Below are positions 37,485 through 63,800 of a stretch of DNA of 64,000 nucleotides, in pieces. Numbering within the stretch: the first letter of the stretch is position 1; each line of letters opens with the position of its first letter. The position numbers and the translations under genes were made by a program. Origin of the DNA: Escherichia coli 042 (GTDB taxonomy: Bacteria; Pseudomonadota; Gammaproteobacteria; Enterobacterales; Enterobacteriaceae); assembly GCF_000027125.1 (NCBI RefSeq), contig NC_017626.1, one strand, 5' to 3'. Below the pieces are notes generated by a model. The model was not told the origin of the DNA. It worked only from the letters and a program-made list of their open reading frames with translations, and did no database searches.

Positions 37485-38561
37485 ATGAACAAAATAGAAA
37501 CGGATACATTACTGCTTCCTGTTATAGGAGAATCGCCGGCAGGTGATGATATTGAGTATGATCCGGTGTATAGCGAAATACGGGAGGCAAGACAAAATGA
37601 TCCGGACTATATGTCTCAGGGGGAATGGGCTGTCAGTGAACCCCGCAGAGCTGACTGGAGAAAAGTAAGAAAATTATGTGAGGTTACTTTACGTAATAAG
37701 AGTAAGGACCTACAAATTAGTTGCTGGTATGTGGAGTCCTTGACGCATTTATATGCTCTGGAAGGGATGCATTGCGGATTGGAATATCTTGCAAAGTTTA
37801 TTTCTCAGTACTGGACTACATGCTGGCCATCGCAGGAAGAAGGTCAGGAAATTCGTTACAGTAAATTGGTTCGTCTTGATATAGATTTATCAGAGTATCT
37901 GAAAGCATATCCTCTTCTTGAGGATAAGGAAATCACACTTTCTGAATGGTATAAGGTGTTATCGTTTGAACATGGAGCAAGTTTGTCAGAAGCTGGAAAA
38001 GAAAGATTAATAGAGAGCGAAGGTGATCACTCTGTTGAGTCCTTCAAAAGAGCTGTAGGAAAATATAATCCCCGCAAGGTTAGTGAGCAACTTCTCCAGC
38101 TTTATGATCTACCTGACAAAATTGATGAGATTGAATCTTCTTACTTCTTTCATACGCATGAAGATATACATCATATTTTCGCAAAAACCAGACATATCAT
38201 CAGTGAGATAACCGAGTTACTGAGTCGTTTTTTGCCGCAAGAAACACTGGATCACAGTTCAGTTTCTCAATTTCTAGGCAAACCCGATAGCAGAGACACA
38301 AGGACAGCACTTCCTGAGGAGAAAAAGGAATTTTATTCTGCATTAACACCCTCAACAGATAAAGAGATGTCAAGGGAGAAAGCTATAGAGCAACTGGAGA
38401 AAATAGCTATTTTTTTCAGGCAATCTGAACCAACCAGTCCTGTTCCTTATCTTCTGGAGAGGGCCATACGTTGGTCAACAATGACTATGTCAGAATGGCT
38501 TGAGGAACTACTTAAAGATAATGACTCTATGGAACAAATAAACCGTGTCTTAAAAGGATGA
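37485..38561 (+). CDS. tssA: TssA (ImpA N-terminal domain protein)
   Basis: 358 aa; ImpA_N-like N-terminus (LLLPVIGESPAGDDIEYDPVYSEIREARQ). Confidence 0.75.
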   Translation: MNKIETDTLLLPVIGESPAGDDIEYDPVYSEIREARQNDPDYMSQGEWAVSEPRRADWRKVRKLCEVTLRNKSKDLQISCWYVESLTHLYALEGMHCGLEYLAKFISQYWTTCWPSQEEGQEIRYSKLVRLDIDLSEYLKAYPLLEDKEITLSEWYKVLSFEHGASLSEAGKERLIESEGDHSVESFKRAVGKYNPRKVSEQLLQLYDLPDKIDEIESSYFFHTHEDIHHIFAKTRHIISEITELLSRFLPQETLDHSSVSQFLGKPDSRDTRTALPEEKKEFYSALTPSTDKEMSREKAIEQLEKIAIFFRQSEPTSPVPYLLERAIRWSTMTMSEWLEELLKDNDSMEQINRVLKG

Positions 38562-51658: not shown

Positions 51659-52813
51659 ATGGATAAAAATTTTATACTAGATATTGCAGTAAGTACTACT
51701 GATCCCCGGAATAATAAAGAGTTTCTTTGGATTAGTTATAGTATGAACAATCTGAGTCCGGCCAAATGTGAAAGAGCATATTGGATGACTCTGGAAAAAA
51801 GATGTCTTTCTTTATTTATGGAAAACGGATATGATCTTCAGACAGGAGCATGGTTCTGTCTTATTTCAGCCAATCTATATAGCTGGGAAGGACTGGCGCT
51901 TTCCTCATGGAAATTTGCAGATTCATTTGTAAAAGAAAAATGCTGGCCTCATGTTACGGCCACTCAGATGCGGACGAATATTCTTATCTGGTATATTAAA
52001 AATGTTATTCCTGCTATGCAAAGTCTGCCTGATGATGAGAAAACCTACTCGTCATTAACCTTGCTGGAGGATGCATTAACATTATTGGCTGATCTCGAAT
52101 ACAATCTTCTTTCTGGCAAATTTTTTATCGTTTCAGATATGCTGGCTGAACTCAAGAGACAAAAGAGTGATGACTCAGAAAGTACTGATGCCGCACATCA
52201 TGATTCAGGATCACATGATGCGAAAGATATTCGGTCTTTTAGCAGTGGTTTACCTACGAATATTGACTCCAATTATACTGCTGGACCAGAACACAATACG
52301 TTAATTAAGAAAGATAAGAAACTGCGCATATATTATAACGTCGTTTCTTTCATATCGGGTGCTCTAATAACCGTTGTAATGAACTATGCTGGCAGGCCGG
52401 AAACAGTACTGAAACTTAGGGGCATCATACCTGATAGCTTTATTACTGAAATGGTTATGAACTATTCTGGATGTTCAGTCTCCCTCCCTAATTCAGCAGA
52501 CTCCTGGTCTAAGCTTGGAAAGAAGATTGATGATTTTACGGAAACACTGAATGTAATTGAAAATGATGGGGGGTATATTACTATATCTAAGTTGAAAACG
52601 ATTGCTTACGATCTGAAAAATACCTTTCTTGAGTATGACATGCCTGTAAATATAAAAATATCAGACTTATATAATAACCAGAATATGAGTAAAGTTGATA
52701 TCAACAGAGAGCTTGAAATGATACAGCATAATATTAACAAGTTCAATTGTGAGATTGGCTATTTAAGGCTGAGAAATGAGGGACTATTAAAGGATAAGGT
52801 TAGAGAAAAGTGA
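51659..52813 (+). CDS. TagA-like ImpA_N-domain protein, AT-rich paralog
   Basis: 384 aa; shares ENG.DLQTG.W, WP and LPDDE blocks with the 20070 protein; internal hydrophobic helix (VVSFISGALITVVM). Confidence 0.55.
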   Translation: MDKNFILDIAVSTTDPRNNKEFLWISYSMNNLSPAKCERAYWMTLEKRCLSLFMENGYDLQTGAWFCLISANLYSWEGLALSSWKFADSFVKEKCWPHVTATQMRTNILIWYIKNVIPAMQSLPDDEKTYSSLTLLEDALTLLADLEYNLLSGKFFIVSDMLAELKRQKSDDSESTDAAHHDSGSHDAKDIRSFSSGLPTNIDSNYTAGPEHNTLIKKDKKLRIYYNVVSFISGALITVVMNYAGRPETVLKLRGIIPDSFITEMVMNYSGCSVSLPNSADSWSKLGKKIDDFTETLNVIENDGGYITISKLKTIAYDLKNTFLEYDMPVNIKISDLYNNQNMSKVDINRELEMIQHNINKFNCEIGYLRLRNEGLLKDKVREK

Positions 52814-53420
52814 GATGTTTCTGTCTATCGGGCTTTTCATAACGAACTCCTCTTATTGAGTCTGAATGTGTTTATCATAGAGGCCGTTTTGTCTTACTCA
52901 GCAATAGTGAGCACATGGCTAAGTGAGTACTCTATCAGTGGTGACTTATATGACAGAGACTGTATCATATAATTATCTCAGATATAATGATATTAATTGT
53001 TTTATGACGATAATTACAGGTAATGATAAGCAGTGATTGTCAGGCTGCTTACTCGATATTACTTGGGGGCGTCGGCCCGCTTGTTGTGGACAGAGGGTAT
53101 TGTTAAATCTTGTTGTTTATGGTATTTTTGTGACTGTGTTTGTTATTACTTTTTATGTCGGCATGCATTATGAAAATTTACTCGTTAACAGGAGCAGTTG
53201 TTATTGATACCGAGTCGGTTTGTTTATTATCTGACTCATCTGAAAAAAACAGATTTATTTACAGTGAGAAAACATAACAATCATTATAACTGTCGTGTGA
53301 GAGGTGTTGTTTGTTCATACAGATTAGTCAAGGCCACGGTTGATGATAGTCCTGATAAGACATTTAATGCGTATTACCTTCCTTATGTGAGAATAAAAAT
53401 TACAATATGTGGTGGACCCA

Positions 53421-53651
53421 TACATCCCATTGAAAAATTTCTCGGTATAGAATATACCAATGCTGAGGAGTTCCCTCTTACATTTCTAAAGGATAATTAT
53501 CATGGGGCCTTAAACTTGGTCCAAAACCGATTGCTAAATCGACAGGAAAACCGGATCAACGCCGACGAGATAATAAAGATACTCCTGGCAACACTCCGGG
53601 ACTAAAACCGAGTAAGTCTACAGGTAAGTAAATAAAAAGGATATAAATAAG
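53421..53651 (+). repeat. ~230 bp dispersed repeat, copy 2 (small ORF frameshifted)
   Basis: Aligns to 26141-26372; an extra base disrupts the 42-codon ORF that is intact in copy 1. Confidence 0.8.
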
Positions 53652-53837
53652 CATTTATACCCTGACTACATATCCAGTCTACTGAAGGTGTTTCTGCAGC
53701 CAGATGCTCGTTCCTTCTATATCATACGCCTTTGCTCCATACCCTTTCGCAAGCAAAGACTCTGGTAAATACTCGTCATATTTATCCAGATGCTTATCAG
53801 GAACAACTGCAGCAAGCTCAAACTCTGATGGTAAACC

Positions 53838-54127: not shown

Positions 54128-55261
54128 ATGCATTCGGAAAATATTGCAGCTTACATCGGGCTGGATGTACATAAAGAAACGTTGGCGGTTGCTATTGCTG
54201 CACCTGAACGGCTTGGCGAAGTTCGTTATTATGGTACGATTAACAACGAAGCCCAGGCTGTACGTCGATTATTTCAGAAATTGCAGGGACTTTACGGAAA
54301 CATTCTTTCCTGCTATGAGGCTGGCCCCTGTGGTTTTGGGCTATATCATCAACTCACAGCGATGAATATAAAATGCCAGGTTATTGCCCCTTCCCGGATA
54401 CCAAAATCACCGACAGACAGAATCAAAAATGATCATCGGGACGCAATTTCTCTTGCCAGGTTACTGCGGGCTGGTGAACTTACCCCTGTCTGGATCCCTG
54501 ACCTGACTCATGAAGCTATGCGGGATCTAATCAGAGCCCGTGCAGCAGCTAAACGAGACAGCAGAGTTGCCCGACAGCGAATTCTGAGCATGCTATTGCG
54601 AACAGACAAACGTTATGCAGGAAAGCACTGGACCGGCAAACATCGAACCTGGTTAGCCAATCAATCATTTAGTCAGCCATCTCAACAGATTGCTTTTCAA
54701 CACTATTGTCAGAGTCTGGAGCAGATTGAAGATCGCATACTTCAACTCGACCAGGAAATATCCCGCCTGTTACCTGAGTGGTCTCTGTGCAATCTGGTCT
54801 GCCAGTTACAGGCCCTTAAAGGTGTTGGTCAGCTAACCGCAATAACCCTGGTTGCTGAACTGGGTGATTTTTCACGATTTTCCAGTCCCAAACAACTCAT
54901 GGCTTTTCTGGGACTGGTTCCAGGGGAATATTCCAGTGGAAACAGCATTCGTCCCAGGGGAATAACAAAAGTTGGAAACAGCGAACTGAGACGTCTGCTT
55001 TACGAAGCCGCCTGGTCTTATCGTACACCTGCAAAAGTTGGTGCATGGCTTATATATTACCGACCGGATTCTGTAACACAATATTCCAAAGATATTGCAT
55101 GGAAAGCTCAACAACGATTGTGTTCTCGTTACCGAAGTCTGACAGCAAAAGGGAAAAAATCACAAGTAGCCATTACGGCGGTGGCTCGTGAGTTGACTGG
55201 ATTTATGTGGGATATTGCACTTGCTGCCCAATCATCATTCAGTCAGCAGAAGCAAAATTAA
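54128..55261 (+). CDS. IS110-family transposase, copy 1
   Basis: 377 aa; N-terminal IGLDVHKETLAVAI is typical of IS110-type transposases; near-identical to 56245-57378; element appears 3'-truncated just after the stop codon. Confidence 0.8.
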   Translation: MHSENIAAYIGLDVHKETLAVAIAAPERLGEVRYYGTINNEAQAVRRLFQKLQGLYGNILSCYEAGPCGFGLYHQLTAMNIKCQVIAPSRIPKSPTDRIKNDHRDAISLARLLRAGELTPVWIPDLTHEAMRDLIRARAAAKRDSRVARQRILSMLLRTDKRYAGKHWTGKHRTWLANQSFSQPSQQIAFQHYCQSLEQIEDRILQLDQEISRLLPEWSLCNLVCQLQALKGVGQLTAITLVAELGDFSRFSSPKQLMAFLGLVPGEYSSGNSIRPRGITKVGNSELRRLLYEAAWSYRTPAKVGAWLIYYRPDSVTQYSKDIAWKAQQRLCSRYRSLTAKGKKSQVAITAVARELTGFMWDIALAAQSSFSQQKQN

Positions 55262-56244: not shown

Positions 56245-57378
56245 ATGCATTCGGAAAATATTGCGGCTTACGTCGGGCTGGATGTGCATAAAGAAACGTT
56301 GGCGGTTGCTATTGCTGCACCTGAACGGCTTGGCGAAGTTCGTTATTATGGTACGATTAACAACGAAGCCCAGGCTGTACGTCGATTATTTCAGAAATTG
56401 CAGGGACTTTACGGAAACATTCTTTCCTGCTATGAGGCTGGCCCCTGTGGTTTTGGGCTATATCATCAACTCACAGCGATGAATATAAAATGCCAGGTTA
56501 TTGCCCCTTCCCGCATACCAAAATCACCGACAGACAGAATCAAAAATGATCATCGGGACGCAATTTCTCTCGCCAGGTTACTGCGGGCTGGAGAACTTAC
56601 CCCTGTCTGGATCCCTGACCTGACTCATGAAGCTATGCGGGATCTAATCAGAGCCCGTGCAGCAGCTAAACGAGACAGCAGAGTTGCCCGACAGCGAATT
56701 CTGAGCATGCTATTGCGAACAGACAAACATTATGCAGGAAAGCACTGGACAGGAAAACATCGAACCTGGTTAGCTAATCAATCATTTAGTCAGCCATCTC
56801 AACAGATTGCTTTTCAACACTATTGTCAGAGTCTGGAGCAGATTGAAGATCGCATACTTCAACTCGACCAGGAAATATCTCGCCTGTTACCTGAGTGGTC
56901 TCTGTGCAATCTGGTCTGCCAGTTGCAGGCTCTTAAAGGTGTTGGTCAGCTAATTGCAATAACTCTGGTTGCTGAACTGGGTGATTTTTCGCGATTTTCC
57001 AATCCCAAACAGCTCATGGCTTTTCTGGGACTGGTGCCAGGTGAATATTCCAGTGGAAACAGTATTCGTCCCAGAGGAATAACAAAAGTTGGAAACAGCG
57101 AACTGAGACGTCTGCTTTACGAAGCCGCCTGGTCTTATCGTACACCTGCAAAAGTTGGGGCATGGCTTATATATTACCGACCGGACTCTGTAACACAATA
57201 TTCCAAAGATATTGCATGGAAAGCTCAACAACGATTGTGTTCTCGTTACCGAAGTCTGACAGCAAAAGGGAAAAAATCACAAGTAGCCATTACGGCGGTG
57301 GCTCGTGAGTTGACTGGATTTATGTGGGATATTGCACTTGCTGCCCAATCATCATTCAGTCAGCAGAAGCAAAATTAA
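56245..57378 (+). CDS. IS110-family transposase, copy 2
   Basis: 377 aa, differs from copy 1 at a handful of residues; insert flanked by short inverted TATGACCTTT repeats. Confidence 0.85.
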   Translation: MHSENIAAYVGLDVHKETLAVAIAAPERLGEVRYYGTINNEAQAVRRLFQKLQGLYGNILSCYEAGPCGFGLYHQLTAMNIKCQVIAPSRIPKSPTDRIKNDHRDAISLARLLRAGELTPVWIPDLTHEAMRDLIRARAAAKRDSRVARQRILSMLLRTDKHYAGKHWTGKHRTWLANQSFSQPSQQIAFQHYCQSLEQIEDRILQLDQEISRLLPEWSLCNLVCQLQALKGVGQLIAITLVAELGDFSRFSNPKQLMAFLGLVPGEYSSGNSIRPRGITKVGNSELRRLLYEAAWSYRTPAKVGAWLIYYRPDSVTQYSKDIAWKAQQRLCSRYRSLTAKGKKSQVAITAVARELTGFMWDIALAAQSSFSQQKQN

Positions 57379-59086: not shown

Positions 59087-59437
59087 TTACAACATTGTCA
59101 GTGCGTTAAGGCGGGATGTTTTTGGCTGACGCCAGTCCAGCTTATCGAGGAGCATTGCCAGTTGCGAGCGGGTAATGGATATCTTACCGTCACGCACCGC
59201 AGGCCAGATAAACTGACCTTCCTCAAGGCGTTTGGTGAACAGGCACAGACCATCAGCATCAGCCCACAGGATTTTAATCGTGTCTCCCCGTCGGCCACGG
59301 AAGATAAACAGGTGACCGGAGAAGGGGTTATCATCCAGCACATGCTGTATCTGCTCCCCCAGACCGTTGAAGGATTTACGCATATCAGTAACGCCGGCAA
59401 CGAGCCAGATACGGGTACCTGATGGGAGTGAAATCAT
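59087..59437 (-). CDS. tnpB: IS66 TnpB
   Basis: 116 aa; position between tnpA and tnpC; 4-bp overlap with tnpA. Confidence 0.8.
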   Translation of the reverse strand: MISLPSGTRIWLVAGVTDMRKSFNGLGEQIQHVLDDNPFSGHLFIFRGRRGDTIKILWADADGLCLFTKRLEEGQFIWPAVRDGKISITRSQLAMLLDKLDWRQPKTSRLNALTML

Positions 59438-59871
59438 CGTCCCCTCCCGGTCAGCTCACGGATCAACACCGTGAGCAGCTCTGGTGAAGGATTTTCCAGC
59501 ATCATTTTACCGTAATGGAATTCCACATGGCAGGAAGCTGCACAAGCAACTGATAATGCCTCCGGAGCAGGAGCATCTGTAGCACAGCGCGGGGTGTCGA
59601 TAAGTTCCACTGGAACCAGAGTCGGAGAGGCCGGAAAAGATTGTGATACTGTAGGGCCTACAATAGTTGGAGGCATTCTACGAGAAATACGTCCTTCTCT
59701 TTGCCAGAGGCGTAGCCATTTAAAAATCAGGTTGTTATCAACGCCATGTTCCCGGGCCAGTTGTGCAACATTGGCATTTGGTTTCGAAGCCAGTTCAACC
59801 ATATGAAGTTTAAATTCATTAGAAAATATCCGGCGGGTTCCGGAGCGCCAGTCTGTAGGTTTATCCATCAA
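59434..59871 (-). CDS. tnpA: IS66 TnpA
   Basis: 145 aa; HTH-like N-terminus; first ORF of the IS66 three-gene set. Confidence 0.75.
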   Translation of the reverse strand: MMDKPTDWRSGTRRIFSNEFKLHMVELASKPNANVAQLAREHGVDNNLIFKWLRLWQREGRISRRMPPTIVGPTVSQSFPASPTLVPVELIDTPRCATDAPAPEALSVACAASCHVEFHYGKMMLENPSPELLTVLIRELTGRGR

Positions 59872-59952
59872 TAGAACTCCGTCTAATTTAGAAGGAGCTC
59901 TAATTTAGTCTGCAAGGAGCAGGTGTTACAGACGGCATTGGCTTTACGCTTA

Positions 59953-60408
59953 CCCATAGAGGCGGATATAAGGGGAATGCCGGCAGAGCAGCGGCTTGCT
60001 GAACGTCAGCGAAAAACGAAACCGCTGTTGAAATCCCTGGAAAGCTGGTTGCGTGAAAAGATGAAGACCCTGTCGCGACACTCAGAGTTGGCGAAGGCGT
60101 TCGCGTACGCACTTAACCAGTGGCCGGCACTGACGTACTATGCGAACGATGGCTGGGTGGAAATCGACAACGACATCGCTGAAAATGCCCTGCGGGCGGT
60201 CAGTCTGGGTCGTAAAAACTTCCTGTTCTTCGGCTCTGACCATGGTGGTGAGCGGGGAGCGCTACTGTACAGCCTGATCGGGACGTGCAAACTGAATGAC
60301 GTGGATCCAGAAAGCTACCTTCGCCATGTGCTTGGCGTCATAGCAGACTGGCCGGTCAACCGGGTCAGCGAACTGCTTCCGTGGCGCATAGCACTGCCAG
60401 CTGAATAA
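59953..60408 (+). pseudogene. 3' fragment of a second IS66 tnpC (5' part missing)
   Basis: + strand ...[52 protein letters not shown]...; begins at the junction with the minus-oriented IS66; CGCTTAC end near 60455. Confidence 0.7.
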
Positions 60409-60455
60409 CACATCCCCGTCAATACGGCCCTCGCTGTACGCTTACCGCTTATCCA

Positions 60456-60689
60456 ACGGACATCCGCAAAGTGATCTATACGACGAATGCCATCGAGTCG
60501 CTAAACAGCGTGATCCGCCATGCGATCAAAAAGCGTAAAGTGTTCCCGACAGACGACTCGGTGAAAAAAGTGGTGTGGCTGGCAATCCAGTCTGCGTCCC
60601 AGAAATGGACGATGCCGTTGAAGGACTGGCGAATGGCAATGAGCCGCTTTATTATCGAGTTCGGTGACCGCCTGGACGGTCACTTCTGA
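60456..60689 (+). pseudogene. IS256-family transposase C-terminal fragment
   Basis: TTNAIESLNSVIRHAIKKRKVFPTDDSVKKVVWLAIQSASQKWTMPLKDWRMAMSRFIIEFGDRL resembles an IS256-type transposase C-terminus; no upstream part. Confidence 0.6.
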
Positions 60690-60839
60690 GAAAGGCATTT
60701 ACACAGAATCTTAAACAGGCTCGCGCCAGTCGGCAAAACTAGTTGACGTCTAATACACTCCCCCTTACCGAAGACCTTCAGTTTTATATTTTAAGAGTCT
60801 CTGAGAAAGGCTGCCTTCCGGCAGCCCTTTACCCCCACA

Positions 60840-63800
60840 TCAGAACATATACCGGAAATTCGCGTTTACCGCATTATCCACGTTATATTTACCAAAGGCT
60901 GACTTCTCAAACTCCAGACCAAAGCGCATATTGTCCTTTATCTGCGCATTCATACCAACATTAAACAGCATCCGGCTGTCCTTCTCTCCTTTTATCCGTT
61001 TCTCCCCGGACGCATCACGCAGTACGGTCTCTCCATTATTCAGCAGGTCAAACTGCCAGCTGGTTCCGGCACGGGCCGTCACACTCCAGTCCTTACCACT
61101 GAAGGTCTTGCCCAGTTCAACCCCTGTTCTTCCAACCAGCGGACTGAAGTCCCTGTTCTTCATGCTCAGGTCCATATCACCGTCTTTCCAGCGGAATGTT
61201 TTCCCGGACACGGCGCCGTAAACCAGTTCAGCCTGCGGCTCAATGAACGTGTCCTCTGTCAGGTGATAGCGGTAACCCGTTTCAGCACCGGCATACCAGG
61301 AATGGGTGTTGTAGTGTTTCGTTCCCAGGCTAGCAAAGTTACCTGTGTAATCATTGTCATGGTGAATATATTTACCAATCAAATCGATATAGGCACCGGA
61401 CTCAAACAATGCTGAAGCATACAGACCGCCCCCCACCGATTTCGTCTTTCCGCTGAATGCATGGCTGTCTGCACTGCTGTCGGTATAGGTCATCGTGACA
61501 CCGGTAAACAGGTCCACACCGTCCAGTTCATGTTTTTTGTCAAAGCCGACCTGAACATGGGTGTAATTATCACTGTAACCACCGTCTGCAGAACCGGCAC
61601 CACTCATGATGCGCGCCCAGGCACCGGCATCACCGTTTGTGTCACGCAGGTCACCCATACGTTTGTTCAGATTGTTAACTTCCGTCATGAAGTTTTTATA
61701 CCCGGCATTCATGAAACTGTCAGCCTTCGCGGCAGCGGCTTTATCAGCCTCCGCTTTAAAACCATCCAGTATCCACTTCGTATTGCCACCACTGGTATCA
61801 ACATGCAGGGTTGGGGTCACCCGACTGAAACCTGTCACCCGGGTGCCGGCCTTAAACATCTCTGCTGAAGTTCCCGCCGGTGCCGTGACCAGAGGAATAT
61901 TCAGGGCCTGTCCCTGAGCAGGATTATTCATAAAGCTGACGTTCAGGCTGTTATCTGAACCAGTGGCTTTTTCAGTCACATTAATTTTATCGGCATTTTT
62001 CAGGTCCGTACGCAAAACAAAATCACTGCCTGTTGCATCCAGTTTATTCACCGTCAGGGTACGGAATGTACGGTCTCCTTCAGAACTAATACGGCTGTTT
62101 CTGACGGTAAGACTGTGGATGGCAGAGTCCCCACCCAGAGTCCACAGTGCATTATGCATACTGACATCAGCCCTGCCACCGGTTATGGCACCATTGAATG
62201 CTGCGTTATAGCCCTCAAGAAGACTGCCGGCAAACGCCGATGCAGCCGTTTCCGCAGAAGCCAGTTCTGCCGGCGTGTCAGACCCGATGGTAACTGTTGA
62301 TGCCGCAGAGGCATGAATATCACCGGAAGCATGTGCTCCACGGGTAATTTCCAGTGCTGCGTTATCGCCGGTCAGGTCATATCCGTCCGTCAGATATACA
62401 GCAGGGGCATACTGATTAGCCGTATCTTTAACCGGTGTACCGCTCAGGGTGATTTTGCCGTTCTTACCGGCCTGAATATGCCCGTCGCTGAAAAGACCGT
62501 TCAGTGCTGTAAGATGACCGCCATCATGCACTGTCAGTGAACTGCCGGCAAAAGCACCCGGGGCTGTCAACAGGACGTCCGGAGAGGTGATGCTGACGGC
62601 ACTGTCATAAGCGTCAATCCCCCCGGTGAACCTGCTGCCGATATCCAGGGCTGAGTTATGGTTCAGCGTAATATTCCCTTCATACTGGCTCCTGTCATTC
62701 ACGGTGTCCGGGACAGAGGTACCTTCCTCCGGAATGACATAATTTCCTGTTCCGTCATTTTTATCCACAAATGCCCTGTCACTTCCCAGTGTGATATGGC
62801 TGTTATCCGACTTAATGTCACTGTTCAGCGAGGCGTTACGTGAAAGATGGAAGTCAGCGTCTTTCAGCGACAGTGTTTTCATTGTAAACTGACGGTTTTC
62901 CCAGTCTTTCTGGTTCAGGCTGACCGGTGCACTGCCACTGATGGAGGCATGGATAACCGGATGTCCCTGGAATATCAGGGTGCCACTGTCCTGACTCAGG
63001 GTACCTTCCGGCAGGTTCACGCTACCATCAAAGATGACCTTTCTTCCCCCCGGCACCTGTGGAATGGCGACATCCATATTCCCGGTCAGCTGACCATGAA
63101 AGATAACGGGTTGTTTTGCCCGCCCGGCCAGGATCCTATCTTTTACTGTCTGAACTGCTTTGTTTTTGTCCATGCCAACAAACTCCCACTGAGCCGGATC
63201 ATTCAGGCTGTTCCCCCACAGAGTGTTACCATAGCTGGCAGATTTCAGAATATAGAAGCGGGTCTGGCTGTTGAGTATCATGCTGTACAGGTTTCCTGGA
63301 GTGCCGGTACCACCAAAGGGGGATATATTTCCAATCGTCGGTTCACTGACATTTGTATCCTGAGCCTTAAGATCCAGTAAAAGCTGGGATTTTTGCTGTG
63401 CATTATTTGTAATCACCGCCCCGTAATCAGCAGCCTGCAGTCGGGTGAAGGTAACGGCATTACCATTAAGGTCAAGCTTACCTCCCCGGTATCCCCATGA
63501 AATGTTATCCGGATTGACCTGACGGGCATCCCCGAGCACCACGGTCGGACGTCCGCTGGCGAGGTTCACTGAACTGAAGGCCTGGATATTACCTGCAGTG
63601 TCTGCCTGCTGGTTAAGTACAACGATACCGTCTCCCGTTTTCAGTCCTCCCGGGTTTACACCTGTTCCGTTTATGGTCAGGGTTCCTTCCCCCAGCTTAT
63701 GCAAGTTGTCACCGGCAACGCCGTTGACCTTCCAGGTTACATTCGTCCCCTTGTCAGTAATAATGCCGGCACCCGTCCATGTTTTTCCGGATTCAGCAGA

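Follow-up and report, generated by a model that had tools for sequence, protein, structure and literature searches.

The stretch of DNA analysed here (the window; 64,000 nucleotides of contig NC_017626.1 of Escherichia coli 042) carries two type VI secretion system (T6SS) loci, A and B, each with a gene for a TagA-like protein, and our main subject is the AT-rich one of these genes, at 51659-52813, which lies beyond the end of locus B. The island is of the type found in enteroaggregative E. coli (EAEC) 55989 and O104:H4, with 100% identity to NC_011748 at positions 19500-21700 and 99.9-100% identity to many O104:H4 genomes at positions 49500-53700. Locus A is arranged as VgrG, Tle1-EAEC, Tli1 (twice), PAAR, TssM, TssA, TssF, TssG, TssJ and TssE, and is a Sci-1-type (T6SS-1, i2) cluster carrying Tle1/Tli1. 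Locus B runs tssB, tssC, aaiC/hcp2, tssE, F, G, vgrG, DUF6931, PAAR, tssA, J, K, L, M and H, and is an Aai/Sci-2 (T6SS-3, i4b) cluster, T6SS-1 and T6SS-3 of E. coli being the i2 (sci-1) and i4b (sci-2) systems, respectively (PMC12282107, PMC5048182). The two cores differ in composition (49.6% GC in locus A, 39.0% in locus B) and in their TssA. That of locus A (9637-11235) is a long form of 532 amino acids (aa) with ImpA_N and VasJ domains (TIGR03362, 363.6 bits; Pfam ImpA_N and T6SS_VasJ), and that of locus B (37485-38561) is a short form of 358 aa with ImpA_N only (Pfam), matched over its full length by TIGR03363 (228.6 bits, cutoff 160.85). By annotation and synteny the final core gene of locus B is tssH (clpV2/aaiP; 44894-47443), and the annotation has no TagB/TagJ-type gene between tssB and tssH. 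All T6SS genes, and all features of the gap behind tssH, for which coordinates are given below lie on the + strand.

The gene at 51659-52813 starts with ATG, has a GC content of 36.5% and encodes a protein of 384 aa. It is not new in itself, as RefSeq already labels it by domain (WP_000359994.1, 'VasL domain-containing protein'). Pfam places an ImpA_N domain (PF06812) at residues 14-111 (nt 51698-51991) and a VasL domain (PF12486) at residues 277-364 (nt 52487-52750; 32.2 bits, gathering threshold 27.3), and hydropathy marks a helix between them at residues 222-245 (nt 52322-52393). This hydrophobic segment is conserved family-wide in the AT-rich type, with a nearly invariant G234 in the alignment. 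In the AlphaFold2 model the N-domain is helical (predicted local distance difference test, pLDDT, 70-86) and is joined by a disordered linker to a long helix (residues 213-244), after which comes a less confident helical C-domain.

The GC-rich counterpart, the tagA gene of T6SS-1 (20070-21437, ATG start, 54.5% GC), lies downstream of the locus A tssE and encodes 455 aa with the same parts in the same order: ImpA_N at residues 8-109 (63.6 bits), a hydrophobic helix at 234-259 (Kyte-Doolittle 1.99) and VasL at 306-449 (129.8 bits). It is colinear with full-length homologs of 432-465 aa, at 86-94% identity. In the RefSeq annotation (Prokaryotic Genome Annotation Pipeline, PGAP) of strain 55989 (20571-21938 of locus L008 in our numbering), this open reading frame (ORF) is represented by three features (a partial pseudogene with ImpA_N, a fragment named 'POTRA domain' and a VasL protein of 171 aa); judged by the intact frame, this three-way split is an annotation artefact. 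We equate the ORF with EC042_4550 by its architecture, its Tle1/Tli1-EAEC neighbours and its position, and not by sequence comparison.

An initial reading of the DNA letters, referred to here as the sequence-only reading, had located both ORFs correctly and described their products as two TagA-like ImpA_N paralogs, one for each T6SS locus, with shared ordered blocks, an internal hydrophobic helix and a composition matching the respective locus. The helix and the difference in composition are borne out, and the pairwise alignment and ImpA_N profile search that it proposed gave two colinear high-scoring segment pairs by BLASTP (25% identity, E 6e-7, in the N-terminal part; 32% identity, E 1e-7, in the C-terminal part) and an ImpA_N match above the gathering threshold in both proteins. 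The shared blocks are real, although they had been loosely transcribed, the parts in common being NG[YV][DE]LQT..W, EGLAL, WP and PDD. There is indeed one TagA-like protein per locus, but 'paralogs' is a loose term, as the two came with separately acquired clusters.

A word-indexed search returned 53 relatives of the 384-aa protein (Escherichia where named) down to 42% identity, nearly all with both domains, and an exhaustive profile search with the AT-rich family gave 164 representative clusters, among which proteins of ~360-375 aa match over their full length and proteins of ~415-465 aa match in two stretches; a T6SS-1 TagA representative scored 38.5 bits against this profile. Yersinia enterocolitica, Buttiauxella and Shigella are among the sources named. 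When 27 diverse members were aligned, VasL was detected in all of them (best E 1e-30) and ImpA_N in 26 (best E 3e-14), and hhalign matched this family along its whole length to that of T6SS-1 TagA, over 353 columns, with a probability of 99.6% (E 9.5e-25). The diverse alignment was needed for this result, since a shallow, Escherichia-only one gave 78% and covered the N-terminus alone. Both types of TagA share a C-terminal VasL motif, [YF].T[IV]SELKT. The 384-aa protein is the shorter of the two because it lacks a segment of ~70 residues that follows the hydrophobic helix in T6SS-1 TagA. On these profile comparisons the AT-rich and GC-rich proteins are homologous from end to end, with ImpA_N, hydrophobic helix and VasL in the same order.

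A role as a core TssA was considered and rejected, as the 384-aa protein reaches only 23.1 bits with TIGR03362 (cutoff 230.1), in its N-terminus alone, and does not match TIGR03363. At the level of sequence it has each of the features that define TagA/TsmA proteins of class B, namely ImpA_N, a hydrophobic segment, VasL and a place in or next to a T6SS cluster. The class B/TsmA naming is said to come from Schneider et al. 2019, and the EAEC Sci-1 TagA was reportedly described by Santin et al. 2018.

The genomic context links the AT-rich gene to the Aai-type machine. The related loci examined were L002-L007 and L009-L018, of E. coli, Y. enterocolitica, Buttiauxella and metagenomic origin. In each of them, the gene directly behind tssH, or in one case (L017) behind tssM, of an Aai-type cluster is of the AT-rich type. 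Its overlap with the tssH stop is 4 bp in L015 (Y. enterocolitica) and L016 (Buttiauxella) and 8 bp in L009; in L004/L005 and L018 it follows the stop after ~19-20 bp, and in L002, L003, L006, L011 and L013 a spacer of 0.67-1.75 kb intervenes. A more distant relative, L019, has the V. cholerae order VasH-VasI-VasJ (long TssA)-VasK-VasL. The comparison indicates that ancestrally the TagA-like gene closed the operon and either overlapped the tssH stop or lay right next to it, and the 4.2 kb that part the two genes in the window (tssH stop at 47443, TagA-like start at 51659) are thus derived, because the compact relatives have no such gap. In addition, in the ten further loci where tssA lies within the fetched flank, it encodes in each case a protein of 350-357 aa with ImpA_N only, so that the pairing of a short TssA with TagA appears as a conserved trait of Aai-type clusters. 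We found no description of this pairing in the literature, where an earlier mention may nevertheless exist. Taken together, the 384-aa protein is probably the cognate accessory protein, of TagA type, in the Aai/Sci-2 (T6SS-3, i4b) machine.

The presence of both systems in one island and the common architecture of the two proteins could also suggest that the AT-rich one serves the T6SS-1 (Sci-1) sheath as an additional, redundant stopper. We hold this to be highly improbable, given its local identity of only 25-32% with the Sci-1 TagA, the low score of T6SS-1 TagA against the family profile (see above) and the strict synteny with Aai-type clusters, which extends to genomes and plasmids with no T6SS-1 nearby; moreover, Hcp/TssB and ClpV/TssC of Sci-1 and Sci-2 have been reported as non-interchangeable (PMC5048182).

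The assignment to the Aai-type machine agrees with how the gene has evolved. In rank order its divergence matches that of tssH and of the short tssA, and in pairwise comparisons of unsaturated pairs its dN/dS is 0.25-0.34, versus 0.11-0.23 for tssH. Judged by these values, it is an old, vertically co-inherited and fast-evolving member of the cluster that is under purifying selection. Among complete E. coli genomes, at a coverage of at least 80%, the short tssA was found in 102 and the TagA-like gene in 92, by blastn searches that detect the most divergent types poorly.

The gap behind tssH can be read in some detail. It begins with 142 bp of the native tssH-tagA spacer (47444-47585), which align with the post-tssH sequence of L002, L013 and L006, and ends with another 64 bp of it (51595-51658), which align with L002, L003, L006 and L013 and include the TagA-like gene's ribosome-binding region. 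Between them lie two copies of an IS3-family insertion sequence (IS) in the same orientation. Copy 1 (47586-48893) is full length and degenerate, annotated in RefSeq as 'IS3 family transposase, frameshifted; internal stop' and containing an AL1L pseudoknot; copy 2 (51191-51594), recognised by self-BLAST, is internally deleted and retains 336 bp on the left and 75 bp on the right. The two copies are 96% and 93% identical, bracket 2.3 kb, and in both the terminal TGAAC...GTTCA ends can be read. Their identity to the IS3-family transposase pseudogene copies of plasmid L003 is 90-91%. Reading the sequence, we found no matching target-site duplications flanking either copy or the composite, which suggests recombination or adjacent deletion rather than a simple (composite) insertion.

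The spacer of plasmid L002 contains a fragment of a group II intron (D1-D4, RF02001, 45 bits versus a threshold of 32 in Rfam), and from this intron and the homologous flanks in the window we conclude that the spacer of this lineage probably held foreign DNA other than IS before the IS3 events. The sequence-only reading was right that IS3 copies part the AT-rich gene from clpV, but its displacement by IS activity is only part of the history, the spacer having been invaded already. An intron remnant as the spacer of the whole lineage was dismissed, since Rfam confirms L002 alone, the whole loci stay below the gathering threshold and the others are linked by flank similarity. The idea that the IS3 of plasmid L003 is an ancient insertion shared with the window was likewise discarded, as the two insertion points differ when the flanks are aligned. 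The differing IS3 positions and the L002 intron fragment imply that the junction was hit repeatedly and independently. Across Aai-type clusters mobile DNA has settled recurrently in two places. At the tssH-tagA junction there is the intron fragment in L002 (19531-19677) and IS3 in the window and L003; between tssK and tssL, L006 (504-2102) has a group II intron with reverse transcriptase, L003 (9147-11583) has IS30/IS3 and L011 (988-2077) has IS fragments.

Several points weigh against the 384-aa protein being a working TagA of locus B. Its ImpA_N score, 27.0 bits, is marginal, 0.1 bit above the gathering threshold of 26.9, and its hydrophobic segment, with a Kyte-Doolittle mean of 1.54 over 19 residues, is borderline for a transmembrane helix. 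A profile search with the AT-rich family against PDB sequences gave a chance match alone. With the full-length model, the first Foldseek match is 6HS5 (the ImpA_N N-domain of TssA from B. cenocepacia), but its E of 0.25 is not significant, and it sits among generic TPR-like helical proteins, so that it is no independent proof. The copy of the gene on plasmid L003 is frameshifted, which indicates that the gene is dispensable. In the window it lacks operon linkage, and a promoter scan upstream of 51659 gave sites no more often than by chance, the best of them, a 9/12 match, lying inside the IS remnant; with no convincing promoter directly upstream, expression in this strain may be doubtful. Finally, the partner TssA is not of the long, VasJ-containing type with which TagA is associated in the literature (groups 1-2). 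The known TagA-TssA contacts are made with a long TssA, at its C-terminus (PMC7545191), and the TssA of locus B has no VasJ; according to the published rule, a long TssA goes with TagA, and a short one with TagB/TagJ and not with TagA (PMC7896307, PMC10433429).

The marginal ImpA_N score is rescued by the 26 of 27 relatives that match the domain and by the hhalign match between the families; in addition, the N-terminus of the 384-aa protein matches the ImpA_N of the locus B short TssA by BLASTP (E 2e-5). The points on expression could instead mean that the gene is a true member of the TagA family but a silent relic in this strain, cut off from the aai operon and intact only because the clone is recent. 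Besides the 4.2-kb distance from tssH behind two IS3-family remnants, the poor promoter prospects and the frameshift in L003, this explanation can draw on the 43 chromosomal copies of the gene, which are at least 99% identical and thus uninformative on selection in the lineage, and on the account of Dudley 2006 given in PMC6730261, according to which aaiA-P are enough for secretion of AaiC, a result that also fits an accessory role of the TagA-like protein. The ORF is, however, intact and keeps its native 64-bp leader with the ribosome-binding region. An interrupted junction is also tolerated elsewhere, as L002, L006, L011 and L013, with spacers of 0.7-1.75 kb, keep intact genes under purifying selection. 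Moreover, AggR activation reaches from aaiA through aaiY, beyond aaiP, as Dudley et al. are cited in PMC6730261. On balance we regard a silent relic as unlikely, and prefer the reading of the gene as a cognate member of the Aai-type cluster whose junction with tssH was entered by mobile DNA, leaving it behind two dead IS3-family copies with its native upstream stretch retained.

The DNA bracketed by the IS3-family copies has two parts. The first, ~1.3 kb long (49244-50571; detected by tblastn with locus A proteins and through a tssB pseudogene in RefSeq), is a collapsed T6SS-1-type cluster: the 5' fragment of tssB (49244-49339, the RefSeq pseudogene), the 3' end of tssE (49447-49639; tblastn, 46-58% identity), a frameshifted homolog (49729-50030; tblastn, 76-82% identity) of the 101-aa ORF that lies next to the locus A tagA, and the decayed 5' half of a tagA with multiple stops (50086-50571; tblastn, ~30% identity over 199 aa). 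The sequence-only reading had taken this DNA for a remnant of locus A, a view that does not hold: at ~70% DNA identity to locus A, it is by this comparison a separate, foreign cluster of T6SS-1 type with a third, dead tagA. The whole block is confined to the 43 genomes that have this island, and in two strains, NCCP15648 and FORC_069, one more IS3 lies within it. The direct succession of tssE, small ORF and tagA in the collapsed cluster suggests that this was the ancestral tail of T6SS-1.

The second part is a gene for a caspase-fold (clan CD-like) protein of 188 aa (50614-51180; predicted template modelling score, pTM, of the AlphaFold2 model 0.72) with invariant Asp49, His56 and Cys98 (Cys98-x-x-Gly) in the alignment. 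Foldseek searches with its model found SAVED-CHAT (E 6e-5), caspases and the cysteine protease domain (CPD) of the V. cholerae RTX toxin, and Pfam gave a weak match to Peptidase_C80. Other Aai-type clusters, including L006/L007, encode homologs on the downstream side of the TagA-like gene, often accompanied elsewhere by an ORF of ~169 aa of which there is none in the window. The protein shares 96% identity with the ORF of L006 and 46% with that of L005, and over the block 50483-51195 the DNA matches L006 11955-12667 at 97% identity, whereas the TagA-like genes of L006/L007 are only 76% identical to that of the window, so that the 188-aa block was imported or relocated. The protein may be a cargo effector of T6SS-3. 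Two other candidate relatives, an IcsB_M-like ORF downstream in Yersinia and a 196-aa ORF of L002, proved to be unrelated to it.

The GC-rich tagA has also been set apart from its cluster. Directly upstream of it is the ORF of 101 aa (19710-20015), which has no Pfam match, is conserved in Salmonella too and may be a partner of TagA. Between the locus A tssE and tagA we observed PD-Lambda-1 (16420-17664, 294 bits) and a NERD+UvrD candidate (17858-19645, 465 bits), and just downstream of tagA the Kiwa genes KwaA and KwaB (21652-22212 and 22215-23045). With its place among anti-phage defence genes, it follows that both tagA genes are parted from their own clusters by inserted DNA.

Further features were seen around the two loci. 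A repeat of 228 bp downstream of the AT-rich gene (53425-53652) recurs with 89.5% identity between the two T6SS loci (26145-26371). Two ORFs of equal length, 377 aa, follow at 54128-55261 and 56245-57378, the first being an IS110-like ISEc45 transposase by the annotation of strain DLI.5a; the window, unlike DLI.5a, apparently has two copies. The neighbouring block in DLI.5a (L001 29930-40693) comprises genes for a DEAD/DEAH helicase, a DNA methyltransferase, an S8 peptidase, an AAA ATPase and an SNF2 protein, and corresponds to window positions ~59400-64000 (- strand), with an ORF of 1031 aa at 60840-63935 (- strand) inside; this is probably another defence system. In strain 55989 an extra ISVsa5 (IS4-like; L008 29261-30469) lies upstream of the tssB gene in the aai cluster and is absent from the window (~28.7 kb). 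Remodelling of the island continues within the 55989/O104:H4 clone.

What the AT-rich protein would do can be approached through the TagA proteins that have been studied. These associate peripherally with the inner membrane, meet TssA at the sheath's distal end, stop its polymerisation and hold it, and their deletion leads to long, curved or broken sheaths and less killing (PMC7545191; PMC7896307; PMC6730261; PMC6745524). The action of TagA as a sheath stopper, named in the sequence-only reading, is on record for EAEC Sci-1 and V. cholerae (PMC7545191, PMC7896307, PMC6730261), and by analogy the 384-aa protein may have the same function. By its homology to these two proteins it would be placed at the inner membrane through the hydrophobic helix. 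Its contact would more likely be with the sheath end or the Nt1 region of TssA than with the C-terminal ring of TssA, because the partner TssA is short and has no VasJ. In TssAs, specific binding to the cognate sheath lies with the Nt1/ImpA_N region (PMC11106082), and a direct contact of ImpA_N with the sheath end would be the most economical hypothesis.

The same ImpA_N could, alternatively, have the protein act mainly on the initiation of assembly, as a competitor or regulator that is bound to the membrane, titrates sheath or TssA Nt1 sites and is no distal clamp. The short, VasJ-less partner TssA and the absence of the ~70-residue post-helix segment of T6SS-1 TagA are compatible with such a role, and in P. 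aeruginosa the short TssA1 is found at the baseplate (PMC6745524). Nevertheless, the architecture and the VasL motif (Y.T[IV]SELKT) are those of the distal-anchor TagAs, and the short TssA of P. putida is at the distal end during extension (Bernal et al., PMC7896307). To our mind a competitor is decidedly unlikely, and a distal anchor remains the preferred role for the AT-rich protein.

In the framework of the published rule, groups 1-2 combine a long TssA with TagA as a distal anchor and have slow, long-lived sheaths, and groups 3-5 combine a short TssA with a TagB/TagJ collar at the baseplate and fire fast; later papers accordingly call TagA 'TssAL-associated' (PMC7896307, PMC10433429, PMC11106082). 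The survey by Bernal et al. behind this rule had no Escherichia or Yersinia cluster in its group 4B sample, and a survey of E. coli does not mention TagA (PMC12282107). The pairing of a short TssA with TagA in Aai-type clusters contradicts this dichotomy. We tentatively propose, as an idea that may well turn out otherwise, that the i4b clusters of Enterobacterales (the Aai-type clusters of E. coli, E. marmotae, Shigella, Y. enterocolitica and Buttiauxella) use a third mode of stabilisation, in which a short, VasJ-less TssA is combined with a TagA-type membrane anchor translationally coupled to ClpV. If so, the rule by which the type of TssA dictates TagA versus TagB/J, and slow versus fast firing, would be incomplete. 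If the protein is functional, recruitment of TagA would be independent of the C-terminal ring of a long TssA and would more likely proceed via contacts of ImpA_N with the sheath end. EAEC 55989 and O104:H4 have both modes in one island and thus offer a tractable test of whether the anchor or the form of TssA sets the firing dynamics. As for annotation, both genes merit the name tagA over 'VasL domain-containing protein'.

Compared with the known systems, the 384-aa protein resembles the EAEC Sci-1 TagA in being encoded by an accessory gene at the tail of a T6SS cluster and in its order of domains. It differs in being 71 aa shorter, in its GC content (36.5% vs 54.5%) and in its divergent sequence (the 25-32% local identity given above). 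The Sci-1 gene follows tssE and the 101-aa ORF in a cluster with a long TssA, whereas the AT-rich gene was ancestrally translationally coupled to tssH in a cluster with a short TssA. The TagA of V. cholerae (VCA0121, VasL; i1) is likewise a class B ImpA_N protein, encoded by the last gene after those for the membrane complex and the ATPase, in an arrangement resembling the VasJ-VasK-VasL of L019, and is reported to be a membrane-associated stopper and stabiliser. Unlike the AT-rich protein, it has a long TssA (VasJ) as its counterpart, along with a sigma-54 activator, and a protein of the V. cholerae type (P0212) matches the AT-rich family profile with E ~6e-17, versus 1e-34 or better for the short-TssA clade. 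TagB/TagJ are the partners of short TssAs that stabilise the extended sheath (PMC7896307), a role that would be expected to be filled in an i4b cluster as well; these are proteins of ~30 kDa, recruited to the baseplate and unrelated in sequence to the 384-aa protein, and locus B has a TagA-type protein in their stead.

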